A stretch of DNA of 64,000 nucleotides from a phage: sequence record NC_135730.1. One strand, given 5' to 3'. Positions 1,113-60,807 of the stretch are shown here, piece by piece (positions within the stretch are counted from its first letter, which is position 1; every line of letters begins with the position of its first letter). A program made the translations under genes and the position numbers. The notes under the pieces were generated by a model. The model saw only the letters and a list, made by a program, of their open reading frames with translations, was not told the origin of the DNA and ran no database searches.

Positions 1113-1538
1113 ATGATCTATGAAATGCCAAAACTGATTCGTGACGATGCCCAAAACGCTCACACCATTATTATGGGCAAACGCATGGATATTATTTGTC
1201 ATAAAGATTTCTGGAAAGGAAGTTACTTCACAGAGTATTTTGGTAAACTGGACAATGGTCTGCTGATCCAGTTCTACACCGATGCGGAAAACAACATTCA
1301 CTGGGAGTTCGAAACTGAAGATATCCATAAACTTTTCACCTTCCTCGGTATTAAGGTTGAGGCCAAGTTTGAAGAAGGTGAGTGCGACGATTGTGGATTC
1401 TATGAGGTAACAGATTTCTATCTTCCAAGTGGTGAGAACCTTTACTATGAAAGCCACTTCGGCAACTCCAATATGCCACAGTGTTGGACTGAGTTTTTTG
1501 AAATTGCGGAAGAGGAGCTGGCATACCGTGATTATTGA
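1113..1538 (+). CDS. hypothetical protein
   Basis: 141-aa track ORF with GGAGAA RBS. Confidence 0.6.
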   Translation: MIYEMPKLIRDDAQNAHTIIMGKRMDIICHKDFWKGSYFTEYFGKLDNGLLIQFYTDAENNIHWEFETEDIHKLFTFLGIKVEAKFEEGECDDCGFYEVTDFYLPSGENLYYESHFGNSNMPQCWTEFFEIAEEELAYRDY

Positions 1539-1986
1539 TACTGTAGGTGGAGATCTAATCTCCATTTTCAAGAAAGGGTCAGGCCACATGATCCACGGTT
1601 GTAACTGCTTTCACACAATGGGTGCAGGTATAGCGAAAGATATTGCCCGTGAGTTCCCTCAAGCACTGGCAGCCGACAAAGAAACTGCTTATGGTAATCT
1701 AGACAAGCTGGGTATGTTTTCTTGTTGGGAGCATTTTGCCAAGAACAGGGTCGTATATGGAATCAACCTGTATACCCAGTTCTACCCAGGGCCCAATGCT
1801 GAATACTTCTCAATCATGAAAGGTTTTGAGCGAGTCAACGAGGTATTCAAAGGTGTGTCATTGCCGTTCTACATTCCTAAAATTGGATGCGGTATTGGCG
1901 GTCTAAAGTGGGAACATGTAGAAGATGTAATTAATCTTGCAACCACAGATATTGATGTGGTTGTAGTAGAGTACAAAAAGTGTTGA
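1528..1986 (+). CDS. macro domain protein (TARG1/OARD1-like ADP-ribose hydrolase fold)
   Basis: GTG at 1528 overlapping upstream stop; motif HGCNCFHTMGAGIA resembles the TARG1/DarG-type macrodomain core; N-terminal GGDL. Confidence 0.6.
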   Translation: MIIDTVGGDLISIFKKGSGHMIHGCNCFHTMGAGIAKDIAREFPQALAADKETAYGNLDKLGMFSCWEHFAKNRVVYGINLYTQFYPGPNAEYFSIMKGFERVNEVFKGVSLPFYIPKIGCGIGGLKWEHVEDVINLATTDIDVVVVEYKKC

Positions 1987-53206: not shown

Positions 53207-53920
53207 TTAAATATACTCTGTTACATCCTTGAAGCTCGAAGGCTTCATGATCTTACCTTTACTGTCAAGGAATATGATAACTTTATTACCGTTGTAGAAT
53301 TCTTCCTTGGCAACAAAACCTTCATATCGACCATCAAAGCGGCGTTCAAGATCTTTAATCTCCAACTCGATTAGTTGTTCAGCAGGCATATCTGCACTGG
53401 CACCGTGTGAATACCGTAGATGGTTGACCCGTGCAAACTTGCTGTCATTCGATTTGAGAACCTTACGCATCATCCCGCACACATCGCCGCGAAGCTGGAA
53501 CAGCAAAGCTGTTGACAACTCTGCTAAGCGGTAAGCAGACGCTCTTTGCTTAGAGGTGTTTTTCGCAGCGATCAGTGTATCATAGAACTCGCCGATCTTG
53601 AACTTAAGACCTCGTGGATTATCAAACAGGTTTGACCACTTTTCGTGATTATCATTAACAAGATAAGCGGCATAACTTGTGACAACGTGAAGATCGCAGG
53701 CCTCTTTTAGCAGGTGATCTCCACCATCACCTTTCTCCAGCTCTTCCAAAACCTCATTGAACTCTTCCTCAATGAAGCTAAGCTGTAATTCGAATGGCGT
53801 GTATGATTTTTTCACTTTAGCTGCCACACGGTTCCAGTTTTCCACCCAATTGGCAGACCAAAGGTAGTTTTCAGGCTGAGACAGTTTTTCCAGGTTGTCG
53901 ATCAGTTTAGTATTCAGCAT
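53207..53920 (-). CDS. hypothetical protein with MazG-like all-alpha NTP pyrophosphatase motif
   Basis: EEEFNEVLEELEKGD...LLKEACDLHVV resembles MazG/HisE EExxE repeats. Confidence 0.35.
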   Translation of the reverse strand: MLNTKLIDNLEKLSQPENYLWSANWVENWNRVAAKVKKSYTPFELQLSFIEEEFNEVLEELEKGDGGDHLLKEACDLHVVTSYAAYLVNDNHEKWSNLFDNPRGLKFKIGEFYDTLIAAKNTSKQRASAYRLAELSTALLFQLRGDVCGMMRKVLKSNDSKFARVNHLRYSHGASADMPAEQLIELEIKDLERRFDGRYEGFVAKEEFYNGNKVIIFLDSKGKIMKPSSFKDVTEYI

Positions 53921-53933
53921 TAAAGGTCTCCTT

Positions 53934-54695
53934 TTAAAGTTCCATAAAGTTTTCTACAGTTTCAATAAATGCTTTATCAGAGAAAGCGTCAACAGCACCG
54001 TTAAACCATACAGGGATCCCGCGATCCTCATATTGATAAAGGTCGCTACGTGAAATGCCACTTCCATCTGCACTCTGCGAATCATACTTGTTTACAATCA
54101 GCAGTTTTGTTCCTTTACAAGTAGCAGGAAACAATTCCCAGTTAAAATTAATAACTGTGTTAGAACAACCCACTAGGATCACCATATCATTGCTGGTGAG
54201 AGATGTCAACAGGTCATACATGTCTGTATACTTAGGAGCAACCTCGCCGAAGAACACTACATTGGGCTTAACCCAGGTATACTTGCCTGTATCTACCTCC
54301 GTGTATCCGATATTTTTAATTACATCATTACCTTCAGCATCTTCGTAGGTGATTTCAGGCAAATACCCGTGGACATGTAAAATATCTTCATGTTTTACAC
54401 CAGCCCGCTCCAGCAAATCATCTACATTGGTGGTAAGGTTGATCACACGACCAGACCAGCGGGAATACCACTCAGCGATCCGAAGATGTGCAAGGTTAGG
54501 ATCAACACTGCCCAGAGCTACACGACGTGCATTGTAAAAGTCATGCACCTTGTAGTAGTTCTTGGCAAAGGTGTGGATGTTGCACACCTCATCGATGCTG
54601 AAATTCTCCCACATTGCAGTGCTACCAGATCGGAAAGTGGGAATACCAGATTCAGCGCTCAAACCAGCACCGGAGATAATAATCAGTCGTCGCAT
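53934..54695 (-). CDS. Sir2-family NAD-dependent deacylase/ADP-ribosyltransferase
   Basis: GAGLSAESGIPTFRS NAD-binding motif, TTNVDDL, HG. Confidence 0.75.
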   Translation of the reverse strand: MRRLIIISGAGLSAESGIPTFRSGSTAMWENFSIDEVCNIHTFAKNYYKVHDFYNARRVALGSVDPNLAHLRIAEWYSRWSGRVINLTTNVDDLLERAGVKHEDILHVHGYLPEITYEDAEGNDVIKNIGYTEVDTGKYTWVKPNVVFFGEVAPKYTDMYDLLTSLTSNDMVILVGCSNTVINFNWELFPATCKGTKLLIVNKYDSQSADGSGISRSDLYQYEDRGIPVWFNGAVDAFSDKAFIETVENFMEL

Positions 54696-54703
54696 AAGTG
54701 TCC

Positions 54704-55054
54704 TCAGTAGATGTTTTGTTTAATCTCTATTCCAAACTTTTTAAACGAGTCAGCTGCAAGCATGAATTTACGAGCCGCTGATGGGTTAGAAGTATGCACG
54801 AAAATCTTCACGTTGTCAACTACAGGGGGCTTACCAAATACAAATTTTTCCTCCAACATAGATAGGCAATCGTACCCTTCGAACAACTCTCCAAGGTCGT
54901 TGTCCATGTGCCACTCAGAAACGCGTCTGTAGAGCTTTCTATTATCGTTAATAAAATCTATAAACTCGGAGGAATTCTTTAGCCAAACAGCGTCTTGGAG
55001 CCCGTAATTTGACGGATCTCTCAAGTCATCCAGCCACACAATCAACTTCTTCAT
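54704..55054 (-). CDS. hypothetical protein (possible flavodoxin-like fold)
   Basis: 116-aa track ORF; IVWLDDLRDP motif. Confidence 0.5.
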   Translation of the reverse strand: MKKLIVWLDDLRDPSNYGLQDAVWLKNSSEFIDFINDNRKLYRRVSEWHMDNDLGELFEGYDCLSMLEEKFVFGKPPVVDNVKIFVHTSNPSAARKFMLAADSFKKFGIEIKQNIY

Positions 55055-55986
55055 TGCATATAGTTCTCGTTGTGGAAATAGTAATCAAGTATCTCACGGC
55101 GTTCCTGCTCCAGGAGGCAGTTCCACACATCTTCTGTGTAATTGTTACGAATGAAGTTTACCATGCCGTAAAACTCTTCGTCAACACGTTTAAAGATATC
55201 ATCATCCCAAATCTTCCAAGCTTTACCCCTCATTACGGCCTTCCGTGCCAGGTAGTATGGAGACTTGATCTTCAGCTGCAGGTCATAAGGGTAGTAAGGC
55301 TTACGGATCATATACCCTTCGCCCATTGTTTCTGCAGCTAATTCTTTTGCATAGCTGAACGGGATTTCACGCACAGTGTGAGGACGTTTTGCACCAAGGT
55401 ATTTGGCAATCCCATCTAAAGCTGCTTCTGGTAGCATTATTCCAGAATCATTATATCTGCAACCTATCAAATATGCGCCATGGTCTTCTTGAACAATATG
55501 CGGATCTGAAGGGTGACAAATTTCAAACATGAATGTCATGTTTTCATTGCCCATAACCTTCTTGATAAGATCTAAATTACCACATTGCTCTTGGATGGTT
55601 TCCTTTGCAAGGTTACAATATGGAGAATCAAGAGACCCGGTTGTTGAGAACAATAGGTCACCTTTATGAGATGATACCACACCAAGGAATCCGTTCTTTT
55701 TCTCTACCGCCGTCACAAGCTTATTGTCAGGCAGGTTGGTGGAGTTTTCTCCCAAGTTAAACACTTTTGTGAAGGGCCATGCCACAACATTCCCTTCATT
55801 ACCTACAACAATGCCTCGGCACTCCAGCAGACGAGGAGACAAATGCCATAAATTGTTGTAAAATACTTTTCTGGCATATTTATAGATCTTTAATCCAAGA
55901 TCTGGGTAATATCTGCTGGTTACAAGACCTTTGTCAACTAGGTCGTCTGCATTAAAATACTTCATCATGCGTTCCTCATTTGTCAT
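55051..55986 (-). CDS. putative RNA ligase (Rnl1/Trl1-type nucleotidyltransferase)
   Basis: motif I KKNG, motif IV EGYMIRK, motif V LKIK; separate from the KLDG DNA ligase. Confidence 0.55.
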   Translation of the reverse strand: MTNEERMMKYFNADDLVDKGLVTSRYYPDLGLKIYKYARKVFYNNLWHLSPRLLECRGIVVGNEGNVVAWPFTKVFNLGENSTNLPDNKLVTAVEKKNGFLGVVSSHKGDLLFSTTGSLDSPYCNLAKETIQEQCGNLDLIKKVMGNENMTFMFEICHPSDPHIVQEDHGAYLIGCRYNDSGIMLPEAALDGIAKYLGAKRPHTVREIPFSYAKELAAETMGEGYMIRKPYYPYDLQLKIKSPYYLARKAVMRGKAWKIWDDDIFKRVDEEFYGMVNFIRNNYTEDVWNCLLEQERREILDYYFHNENYMQ

Positions 55987-56029
55987 TTTGTCAGTCTATC
56001 CTGCCACACAAATAACCTGGTGTCAACAC

Positions 56030-56058
56030 TTGAAATTAACAAAACAGTTGGGTATACT
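56030..56058 (+). promoter_or_regulatory. sigma70-type promoter in divergent intergenic region
   Basis: TTGAAA, 17 nt, TATACT; a TTGACA box for the minus-strand RNA ligase lies back-to-back. Confidence 0.55.
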
Positions 56059-56087
56059 ATCGTTGAAATTAAAACGGAGGATTACTA

Positions 56088-56497
56088 TGTCTAAAATGCT
56101 ATATATCGTGCGTGGTCTACCAGGGTCTGGCAAATCAACACTGGCAAATGCGCTATCTTTAGACGGTCTGTATCCACATTTTGAGAACGACATGTTCTGG
56201 TACGACGATGATGGAAATTATAACTGGGGTGCAAGTAAAGTAACACTTGCAGCAAAATGGTGCAAAGATAACGTAGAAGATATGATGCGTATGGGATACG
56301 ACCGTATCGTGGTAAGTAATACGTTTACAAAAGAAAAATATGTGCAAGAATATATTGACATGGCGATCAGTCATGGGTATAGTTATACCGTGATCGTGGT
56401 TGAAAACCGCCATGGTAATAAAAGCATTCATGATGTTCCAGACAGGGTTGTGGATCGTATGGAACGCCAGCTTAAAAACTGCATTAAACTTAAATGA
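56088..56497 (+). CDS. polynucleotide 5'-kinase-like P-loop kinase
   Basis: GLPGSGKST resembles T4 Pnk kinase domain GCPGSGKST; ACGGAGGA RBS. Confidence 0.6.
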
Positions 56498-56504
56498 GGA
56501 ATGT

Positions 56505-57059
56505 ATGAAATACTTTGTAACAAGCGACACACACTTTCTCCACCAGCGGGTCATGGAGTTCGATTCATGTCAAAAACACAGATCTCAGTATGATCACAAT
56601 CTTGACAGTATGAATGCGGGAATCATCACCAAGTGGAACTCTGTTGTGTCACCTGCAGACACTGTGTTTCACTTGGGAGATATTGCGTGCACTAATGATA
56701 AGAATATCAACAAATTGCTCCCAGATGTTCTAAATATGTTGAACGGACATATTATTCTTGTTCGTGGTAACCATGACACAAGGACGACTGTCAGAATTAT
56801 GAAAGAGTTCGGTCATGAGGTTGTAGATTATTACGAGCTTCGCCACAACAAGAATTTGATCTGTATGAGCCATTACCAGTTTGCAAAGTGGAACAGAAAG
56901 CCTCACGGATCAGTCCAACTGTTCGGTCATGCTCACGGAACCACACAGCAGTTGTTTGGCAGGCAGTTTGATGTCGGTTGGGATGTGTGGGGGAGACTCT
57001 TACCATTGGAAGAGGCATACCGTATTGCAATGAGTCTTGCTATTGACAGCGGGGAGTAA
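56505..57059 (+). CDS. calcineurin-like metallophosphoesterase
   Basis: ATG at 56505 (MKYFVTSDTHF) within track ORF; GDI, GNHD and HAHG metal-binding motifs. Confidence 0.7.
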   Translation: MKYFVTSDTHFLHQRVMEFDSCQKHRSQYDHNLDSMNAGIITKWNSVVSPADTVFHLGDIACTNDKNINKLLPDVLNMLNGHIILVRGNHDTRTTVRIMKEFGHEVVDYYELRHNKNLICMSHYQFAKWNRKPHGSVQLFGHAHGTTQQLFGRQFDVGWDVWGRLLPLEEAYRIAMSLAIDSGE

Positions 57060-59994: not shown

Positions 59995-60069
59995 GCCCTG
60001 TTAGCTTAGTGGATAAAGCAGCGGCCTTCTAAGCCGTTGACACTGGTTCGAGTCCAGTACGGGGTGCCA
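59995..60069 (+). tRNA. tRNA-Arg (anticodon UCU)
   Basis: manual cloverleaf; anticodon loop CTTCTAA; T-loop GGTTCGAGTCC; CCA present. Confidence 0.7.
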
Positions 60070-60073
60070 AATT

Positions 60074-60160
60074 GGGGAGTTATCCCGTAGAGGTAGCGGT
60101 GTAGACTGTAAATCTATTGTCATTGCGACTCGGGTGGTTCGACTCCACCACTCCCCACCA
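60074..60160 (+). tRNA. tRNA-Tyr (anticodon GUA), type II
   Basis: acceptor GGGGAGT/ACTCCCC; loop CTGTAAA; long variable arm; T-loop TTCGACT. Confidence 0.7.
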
Positions 60161-60274
60161 AATTTATATTTTTAGATGCATAAATAATACAGATAATGGC
60201 ATTGATATTTATCGTCGTTTATACTAGTCACTAACTGCTCGAAAATCAGTGTCATTATCAGTATAATTTATAAA

Positions 60275-60365
60275 GGAGGGTAGGGAGCAATGGTGCTCAA
60301 GCGGTCTTGAAAACCGTCCCGTTGAGGATGACTCGATGATGGTTCGATTCCATTACTCTCCGCCA
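60275..60365 (+). tRNA. tRNA-Ser (anticodon UGA), type II
   Basis: anticodon arm CGGTCTTGAAAACCG matches E. coli tRNA-Ser as recalled; long variable arm. Confidence 0.75.
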
Positions 60366-60463
60366 CATTGTTGACCTTGTAATTAAGCGAAAGCCGGAAG
60401 CAGAACCGGATTATCAAATGTTACAGTCGTCATCGCCGACTAGCAACATGGTCAACATACTGA

Positions 60464-60562
60464 GCTAGGTAAGCCCTTTGGCAAGGGCGAGGATTTTTAA
60501 TCCTGAAAATAGACGAGGTAGTCGTTGAATACATAGGTGGTTCGATTCCATCGCCTAGCACC
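60464..60562 (+). tRNA. atypical type-II-length tRNA-like gene, anticodon ambiguous (UUU or UAA)
   Basis: good acceptor, D and T arms; anticodon stem only 4 bp; about 29-nt variable region. Confidence 0.4.
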
Positions 60563-60567
60563 TTTTT

Positions 60568-60643
60568 GCTGATGTAGCACAATCGGTAGTGCAATTGATT
60601 TGTAATCAATAGGTTGTAGGTTCAAGTCCTGCCATCAGCACCA
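60568..60643 (+). tRNA. tRNA-Thr (anticodon UGU)
   Basis: all four stems pair cleanly; loop TTTGTAA. Confidence 0.8.
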
Positions 60644-60644
60644 A

Positions 60645-60719
60645 GGCCCTGTAGCTGGAAGGTTCAAGCAAGCGACTCATAATCGCCAGACGGTGGTTCA
60701 ATTCCACCCAGGGCCACCA
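60645..60719 (+). tRNA. tRNA with CAU anticodon (Met or lysidine-Ile)
   Basis: acceptor GGCCCTG/CAGGGCC; loop CTCATAA; T-stem GGTGG/CCACC. Confidence 0.7.
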
Positions 60720-60730
60720 AATAGTAAATA

Positions 60731-60807
60731 CTCCGCGTAGCTCAGCTTGGTAGAGCGCCTGATTTGGGATCAGGAGGTCGAGTGTTCGAATCACTCCGTG
60801 GAGACCA
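60731..60807 (+). tRNA. tRNA-Pro (anticodon UGG)
   Basis: C1:G72 first pair typical of bacterial tRNA-Pro; loop TTTGGGA; clean cloverleaf. Confidence 0.8.

Follow-up and report, generated by a model that had tools for sequence, protein, structure and literature searches.

A Gln-type stand-alone macrodomain gene in an rV5-like Escherichia coli phage, homologous to the T4 anti-DarT factor Tk.4/AdfM

Two phage macrodomain proteins bear the name AdfM in the literature. When T4 was passed through a HIDEN-SEQ transposon screen on a DarTG2 host, tk.4 was the single significant hit, and a clean tk.4 knockout sensitised T4 to DarTG2; the gene, whose product resembles the DarG macrodomain, was then renamed adfM, for anti-DarT factor Macrodomain (bioRxiv 10.1101/2025.11.20.689424, November 2025). 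The second AdfM, gp104 of phage PhiKZ, was described in 2026 and removes DarT2-installed ADP-ribose (ADPr) from DNA in vitro, protecting the phage (PMC13309987). Among cellular enzymes, SCO6735 from Streptomyces coelicolor strips ADPr from thymidine in single-stranded DNA more efficiently than DarG or TARG1, the latter also being able to remove thymidine-linked ADPr from DNA, and it rescues E. coli from DarT; a water-mediated mechanism has been proposed, where the Q85A substitution abolishes and N27S nearly abolishes the activity (PMC9411070). The present analysis concerns a macrodomain gene at positions 1528-1986 of a 64-kilobase (kb) stretch of sequence record NC_135730.1, hereafter the window, which is part of the genome of an rV5-like E. 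coli myovirus (Vequintavirus). This genome has ~137 kb, about half of it lying outside the window. The gene and the conserved motifs of its product are located as follows:

1528..1986, plus strand: macrodomain gene, stand-alone and of the T4 Tk.4/AdfM type, 152 amino acids, GTG start, TGA stop at 1984-1986
1594..1635, plus strand: residues 23-36, HGCNCFHTMGAGIA, end of strand 2 and first Gly-rich (GxG) ADP-ribose-binding loop, including N26
1765..1779, plus strand: residues 80-84, NLYTQ, with Q84 at the catalytic-Lys position; N80, Y82, T83 and Q84 invariant
1876..1902, plus strand: residues 117-125, PKIGCGIGG, second Gly-rich (phosphate-binding) loop; P117, G120 and G122 invariant

The first-pass annotation, made from the sequence alone, had proposed that this open reading frame (ORF) encodes a macrodomain with a TARG1/DarG-like core, and the first part of that proposal is borne out in full. 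The 152-residue frame is intact and contains HGCNCFHTMGAGIA exactly as it had been quoted, and the profile search against macrodomain families, which had been suggested as a check, gives a match to Pfam Macro (PF01661) above its cut-off (E = 1e-5, 25.9 bits, cut-off 22), as well as to PHROG 335 (E = 5.5e-59). The AlphaFold2 model, with a mean predicted local distance difference test (pLDDT) of 94.8 and a predicted template modelling score (pTM) of 0.90, has a mixed β-sheet with helices, and a Foldseek search with it returned 192 fold matches in the Protein Data Bank (PDB) at E <= 1e-3, the top ones all being macrodomains. A hidden Markov model (HMM) of the family finds exactly one match across the window. 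Meanwhile, 266 database homologues were retrieved at E <= 1e-3, including a Delftia phage protein named 'Tk.4', and tblastn matches were obtained in 2,821 of 50,697 phage records, mainly from large enterobacterial myoviruses. Near-identical public genomes already carry the label 'macro domain protein' for this gene.

Regarding the class, fold, sequence and profile agree, and the assignment to the TARG1/DarG-like class is therefore right: the protein is, by these three criteria, an ALC1-like (ALC1/TARG1/DarG-like) macrodomain, and not one of the MacroD, PARG or viral nsp3 types. The top Foldseek ranks are occupied by Poa1p, TARG1, the DarG proteins of Thermus aquaticus and Mycobacterium tuberculosis, BT1257 and SCO6735 (probability 1.0, template modelling (TM) scores of 0.69-0.76). 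A single-sequence search of the PDB places SCO6735 first (2.2e-5), followed by the M. tuberculosis DarG macrodomain (3.5e-5), Poa1p (2e-4), BT1257 and TARG1, and a profile built from 58 homologues recovers M. tuberculosis DarG (2.1e-14), BT1257 (6e-14), SCO6735 (2e-13), TARG1 (5e-13) and Poa1p (6e-12), with the MacroD-like viral nsp3 macrodomains at 4e-3 at best. The profile scores of all class members fall between 49 and 57 bits, too close to tell a DarG descent from an SCO6735/BT1257-type one, and the sole separator between DarG and a stand-alone SCO6735/BT1257-type ancestry is the Gln/Lys position. The closest bacterial relative that was looked at is encoded on the chromosome by a gene that stands alone, and no DarT lies beside it.

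Conservation was read from an alignment of the same 58 homologues, which are 34-84% identical to the window protein. No variation is seen at G24, N26, C27, M31, G34, A36, D50, N80, Y82, T83, Q84, P117, G120 and G122, and conservation is 90% or higher at H23, F28, G32, A33, I119 and G125. Both Gly-rich loops, G32-A33-G34 and G120-C-G122-I-G124-G125, are thus kept across the family, so the loss of the conserved loop on alignment, which the first-pass annotation had named as an observation against its reading, was not seen. As aligned to SCO6735, DarG and Poa1p, N26 is the equivalent of SCO6735 Asn27 and of the conserved macrodomain Asn. Q84 aligns to K80 of DarG, K84 of TARG1, Gln85 of SCO6735 and the Gln of BT1257 (HMMER and MAFFT), and G124 aligns to the catalytic D125 of TARG1. 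Since the catalytic residues of DarG and TARG1 are replaced by Gln84 and Gly124, the active site resembles that of SCO6735 and not that of TARG1 or DarG. Consequently, the TARG1/DarG-like core claimed at first stands as a class assignment by sequence, profile and fold, but not for the catalytic residues, as K84/D125 of TARG1 and K80 of DarG have no counterparts here.

The comparison with DarG is informative on both sides. The macrodomains of M. tuberculosis (PDB 5M3I) and T. aquaticus (5M31/5M3E) superpose with TM scores of 0.75-0.76, the former giving the best profile match, and share the substrate-binding loops and the Asn. However, the catalytic Lys80 is replaced by Gln84, invariant across the family, and the C-terminal DarT-binding domain is absent, the protein having 152 amino acids against ~330-340 positions of the DarG models. 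The NCBIfam DarG equivalog NF048014 scores 44.2 bits against a cut-off of 250, along profile positions 8-144 of 338 only, and the PADLOC DarG model scores 45.5 bits along positions 9-143 of 329 only. No DarT adjoins the gene, whose neighbours are small ORFs without a Pfam family. DarG proper was rejected for the missing catalytic Lys and C-terminal domain and for the score far below the NCBIfam cut-off. TARG1/OARD1 (PDB 4J5R/4J5S) is similar in length and fold (TM 0.74-0.80, E = 7e-10), and TARG1/OARD1 proper was rejected because its K84/D125 dyad is replaced by Q84/G124.

The closest functional evidence comes from T4. In a tblastn search of the T4 genome, tk.4 is the sole match of the window protein (E = 2e-36), and it adjoins vs. 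Tk.4 has 155 amino acids and is 39% identical over the full length (residues 1-150, E = 1e-42), with the motifs HGCNCFHTMG(A/S)G, NLYTQ and IG(C/A)GIG in common; both proteins are stand-alone, and both match the PADLOC DarG model over its macro part only. A protein of Krischvirus JK32, encoded in the slot between vs and tk that tk.4 occupies in T4, is 67.5% identical to the window protein. The differences are of context: T4 belongs to Straboviridae and the window phage to Vequintavirinae, and the T4 gene is flanked by vs and tk, whereas the window has neither of them and an ORF of unknown function overlaps the gene upstream.

PhiKZ gp104, whose sequence was translated from the construct in PMC13309987, is also a phage-encoded stand-alone macrodomain with the same biological strategy. 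It is more distant, with 22% identity, a pairwise E of 8e-5 and a profile probability of 96.8%, and it is of the Lys type, having MFPTK like DarG where the window protein is of the Gln type; in addition, gp104 is imported into the phage nucleus. As judged from these residues, the window protein is an AdfM of the T4 (Gln) type and not of the PhiKZ (Lys) type, and the two proteins named AdfM are different sub-branches of the class. Because the sub-branches differ at the catalytic residue, conclusions on mechanism and specificity should not be carried from one to the other without testing.

Taken with the T4 genetics, these features lead us to favour, with moderate confidence, the reading that the window protein is a stand-alone, catalytically competent ADP-ribosyl hydrolase that would counter the abortive DarTG2 defence by clearing DarT2 marks from thymidines of single-stranded phage DNA. 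In the proposed sequence of events, the protein would probably be made early, from a plus-strand block of small host-takeover genes, while the host DarT2, the toxin of the DarTG2 toxin-antitoxin system, would attach ADPr to thymidines in single-stranded phage DNA. The macrodomain would then strip the DarT2-installed ADPr, allowing phage replication to continue and acting in effect as an orphan 'antitoxin enzyme'. The chemistry would be lysine-independent, as in SCO6735: Gln84, held by Asn26, would position the distal ribose, and the N-glycosidic bond would be cleaved via water, with the release of free ADPr. The gene, its fold class, the homology to T4 AdfM, the pattern of conserved active-site residues and the independence from Sir2 (see below) are established by the analysis; the enzymatic activity, ADPr-thymidine on DNA as substrate, early expression and the anti-DarTG2 role are predicted. 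The reversal of DarT by a phage macrodomain, which had been raised as a possibility at first, is backed by the T4 homologue Tk.4/AdfM, needed for growth on DarTG2 hosts.

Several points weigh against this reading. For T4, the evidence consists of genetics reported in a preprint, where the hydrolysis of ADPr-DNA by Tk.4 is itself inferred (bioRxiv 10.1101/2025.11.20.689424), and an identity of 39% to Tk.4 gives no guarantee of the same substrate. A survey of phage macrodomains by comparative genomics argued that most of them target soluble ADPr derivatives and not macromolecular adducts (PMC9503650), the family is equally close to Poa1p, keeping, as that enzyme does, His23 and, at position 30, a residue with a hydroxyl group, and other public labels of the family are 'phosphatase' and 'Poa1p-like'. 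SCO6735 acts on proteins too (PMC9411070), so that the specificity of the window protein may exceed DNA. Finally, the excess of promoter-like sites from which the early expression of the gene is deduced is modest.

The window protein and SCO6735 (PDB 5E3B) both belong to the ALC1-like class, the latter being the best single-sequence match in the PDB; Q85 and N27 correspond to Q84 and N26, and both are stand-alone, with no DarT neighbour. Their identity is low (27% by MAFFT, 22% in the Foldseek structural alignment). SCO6735 has a longer 'mobile loop' after the Gln, bearing Lys89 (PMC9411070), for which the window protein has no counterpart, and its Lys34 and Val25 are replaced by Ala33 and Gly24. 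As the DNA-binding features of SCO6735 (the Val25 backbone, Lys34 and the Lys89 loop) are missing here, mechanistic details may differ. Moreover, SCO6735 is a cellular, DNA-damage-regulated protein, whereas the window protein is viral.

The hydrolysis of both DNA- and protein-linked ADPr by an enzyme with the same Gln-type site fits an alternative in which the window protein would be a broad-spectrum eraser of macromolecular ADP-ribosylation, acting on RNA modified by RNA-targeting ADP-ribosyltransferase toxins or on proteins, besides or instead of DarT2 marks. Reversal of ADP-ribosylation on nucleic acids more generally is reported for enzymes of the TARG1 class (PMC11833690, PMC13036486), and the presence of the family in ~5.6% of phage records is wide for a countermeasure to one defence. 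On the other side, tk.4 was the only significant match in the DarTG2 screen (bioRxiv 10.1101/2025.11.20.689424), and for enzymes of the DarG type a specificity for thymidine-linked ADPr has been reported (PMC13309987, PMC11825919). We hold the broad-spectrum alternative to be unlikely.

Poa1p, the yeast ADP-ribose-1''-phosphate phosphatase (PDB 6LFQ-6LFU), raises a different alternative, in which the phage enzyme would be a housekeeping eraser of soluble ADPr species: ADP-ribose-1''-phosphate, products derived from ADPr>P, or O-acyl-ADP-ribose. These could come from by-products of the phage Sir2-cREC-RNA ligase set, described below, or from the toxic or signalling ADPr metabolites of host NAD-based defence. 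Poa1p is the top Foldseek match (6lfs, E = 6e-10) as well as a sequence match, the motif I-H-x-C-N-C...G-x-G-I-A is held in common, and His23 and Thr30 of the window protein align with H23 and S30 of Poa1p, residues mutated in 6lfs and 6lft. In addition, the Sir2 of the window is predicted to act like KptA, generating ADPr>P. Yet Poa1p, with 20-21% identity, exceeds the window protein in length (166-169 residues modelled), the target-normalised TM score is lower, at 0.64, and the enzyme acts on a soluble metabolite that arises in tRNA splicing. The 'Poa1p-like' and 'phosphatase' names, which trace back to Poa1p and count in favour of this alternative, are transferred annotation. The macrodomain gene and the Sir2 module are on opposite strands, separated by 52 kb; T4 has the macrodomain without Sir2 and the T5-like phage APCEc03 has Sir2 without the macrodomain; and the sole functional data on a family member, those on T4 Tk.4, point to DarTG2. 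An assignment to soluble metabolites is held to be unlikely, and the removal of DarT2 marks from phage DNA remains the favoured role.

The first-pass annotation had also set the macrodomain alongside a Sir2-family enzyme encoded at 53934-54695. This gene is real and lies on the minus strand, next to genes of a predicted RNA-repair neighbourhood:

53934..54695, minus strand: Sir2-family gene, 253 amino acids; Pfam SIR2 E = 6.9e-28, PHROG 2162 E = 6.6e-108
54704..55054, minus strand: cREC protein; Pfam cREC_REC 3e-15
55051..55986, minus strand: T4 Rnl1-type RNA ligase; Pfam RNA_lig_T4_1 1.6e-14
within 55931..56497, plus strand: P-loop kinase; AAA_33 3.3e-9
56400..57059, plus strand: calcineurin-like phosphoesterase; Metallophos 5e-6

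As described by Iyer, Burroughs and Aravind, the second neighbourhood type, that of 'Escherichia phage V5', is a predicted NAD-dependent, KptA-like RNA-end repair system, in which, as they note, no Macro gene is coupled to the sirtuin (PMC9503650). By its gene content, the Sir2-cREC-RNA ligase-kinase-phosphoesterase block of the window is this V5 neighbourhood type. The Sir2 protein matches CobB-like NCBIfam models, each below its cut-off, and no PADLOC defence-Sir2 model. On inspection of its translation, the motifs GAGxSxxSGIPxFR and HG are kept, with only three scattered Cys, and both CxxC pairs expected for a canonical zinc ribbon are missing; a Sir2 without the zinc ribbon fits, at the level of these motifs, a distinct viral sirtuin clade. 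The predicted RNA-repair block, from 53207 to 57059, also includes a 237-residue protein without a Pfam match, possibly a MazG-like member, and seven tRNA calls are found at 59995-60807 (Arg, Tyr, Ser, Thr, Met, Pro and an odd call with a 4-base anticodon at 60464-60562).

The presence of both genes in one genome could be taken for a sign of a system like the SirTM-macrodomain pairs of bacteria, in which Sir2 would be the writer, placing ADPr on a target, and the macrodomain the eraser; two-gene systems of a sirtuin and a macrodomain are known from bacteria and from some actinophages (PMC9503650). In the known pairs, however, the genes are adjacent, while here they are ~52 kb apart, on opposite strands (plus for the macrodomain, minus for Sir2) and within separate functional blocks, and the Sir2 models matched are of the deacylase kind, CobB-like, with no SirTM-specific one among them. 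The phyletic distributions are also independent. A search for Sir2 homologues gave 1,022 phage records, with T5-like, V5-like, phi92-like and jumbo phages among them. The complete genome of APCEc03 has Sir2 (55% identity, E = 2.5e-96) and no macrodomain by tblastn or by the family HMM, and the complete T4 genome, though it has the macrodomain, has no Sir2 (best tblastn E of 0.008 over 34 amino acids). As each gene occurs without the other, their co-occurrence in the window says nothing on a joint function. A functional Sir2-macrodomain pair was therefore ruled out on distance, opposite strands, the RNA-repair neighbourhood of Sir2 and independent occurrence, such a pair being essentially excluded, and the link implied at first is not supported.

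The other early suggestion, that the macrodomain acts on phage-directed modifications, finds no partner either: no phage ADP-ribosyltransferase was found in the window among the Pfam matches listed or by tblastn. Among the Pfam matches listed for 108 further ORFs of the window (the second list giving 25 of 36 families) there is no ADP-ribosyltransferase, DarT or NADAR, and T4 Alt, ModA, ModB and AdfN (30.3) have no tblastn match within the 64 kb. Some Vequintavirinae, namely Bas60-62, carry the NADAR enzyme AdfN, which counters DarTG1 (PMC11825919); the closest BASEL relative of the window is Bas59 (EduardKellenberger), not among these three. The macrodomain gene of Bas59 is bas59_0089, with 98% identity, and Bas54 has an orthologue as well.

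Regarding the immediate context of the macrodomain gene, two features lie directly upstream:

1512..1517, plus strand: Shine-Dalgarno-like box GAGGAG, 10 nucleotides before the GTG, read directly from the sequence and with a presumed function
1113..1538, plus strand: upstream ORF, 141 amino acids, PHROG 8157 (unknown function), E = 1.6e-81, no Pfam family

The stop codon of the upstream ORF (1536-1538) lies beyond the start of the macrodomain gene, giving an overlap of 11 nucleotides, which suggests translational coupling; from this arrangement, the ORF may be co-translated with the macrodomain gene. The macrodomain homologues of T4 and Krischvirus JK32 are preceded by vs, so that the ORF at 1113-1538 appears to be specific to V5-like phages. 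It was rejected as a conserved partner of the macrodomain on this ground, together with its lack of a Pfam family and of a function for its PHROG. The start of the macrodomain gene itself is well-supported, as the N-terminus MIIDTV... agrees with homologues starting MI(I/V) and with the 459-nucleotide coding sequence of phage A51.2; a longer start (498 nucleotides), annotated in PMBT16, was set aside because the N-termini of the homologues do not back it.

From position 1 to ~17,000, the window is a run of small plus-strand genes, nearly all of them labelled 'hypothetical', and the macrodomain gene sits within this run, which holds several sigma70-like promoters. Between 1 and 3500, 12 sigma70-like sites were counted on the plus strand, against 7.0 ± 2.9 in shuffled sequences, and a perfect consensus (TTGACA-16 nucleotides-TATAAT) is found at 2437-2464 on the plus strand. 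These promoter-like sites fit an early region transcribed by the host RNA polymerase. A terminator-like hairpin was also noted at 286-307.

From ~17,500 to 56,000 the genes lie on the minus strand, with nucleotide-metabolism functions among them. Among the ORFs between 40 and 29703, one carries Phage_zn_bind_2 (Pfam, E = 1.6e-22), and weak Dam/EcoRI-methylase Pfam matches were also obtained, probably reflecting the gene that is labelled DNA N6-adenine methyltransferase in PMBT16. On the minus strand, an ORF of 105 amino acids at 23031-23348 matches Pfam PF02482, the ribosome hibernation/S30AE family, with 48 bits and E = 1.6e-12. The E. coli HPF sequence, used solely to locate the ORF, is ~43% identical to its product. 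Encoded among small minus-strand genes, this homologue of a ribosome hibernation factor might modulate translation in the host.

Matches to the first 6 kb of the window were found in 125 phage records. The identity is 99.1% to two unannotated records, Campylobacter phage C15 and A12a, 98.5% to Escherichia phage A51.2 (Vequintavirus) and 95-96% to several BASEL Vequintavirinae, such as EduardKellenberger. The best database matches (99%; MG065654.1, MG065666.1 and others) were deposited as 'Campylobacter phage' C15, A12a, C5, C14 and A142. The sequence is that of a typical E. coli Vequintavirus, and the Campylobacter host labels look wrong, or the phages look to be from mixed cultures.

Much of what is described here was already known, namely the macrodomain annotation in public records, the survey of phage macrodomains (PMC9503650) and the function of the T4 homologue (bioRxiv 10.1101/2025.11.20.689424). 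By homology, the window protein is a putative additional member of a known anti-defence family, and the co-occurrence with Sir2, which had made the gene look special, gives no sign of a joint system. Mildly new is the observation that the two 'AdfM' proteins of the literature differ at the catalytic residue, with the window protein being of the Gln type. A further idea, very unlikely in our estimation, is that the Gln-type phage macrodomain would be a general eraser, acting on thymidine-ADPr on DNA as well as on RNA-linked or soluble ADPr-phosphate, including products of the V5-like Sir2-cREC-Rnl1 set; if true, one enzyme would link anti-DarT defence with NAD-dependent tRNA repair. If the favoured anti-DarTG2 role holds, Vequintavirinae, which are broad-host-range therapeutic candidates, would carry a ready countermeasure to DarTG2, to which some of them add NADAR against DarTG1, and this would help to predict the defence repertoires of E. 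coli that these phages overcome.

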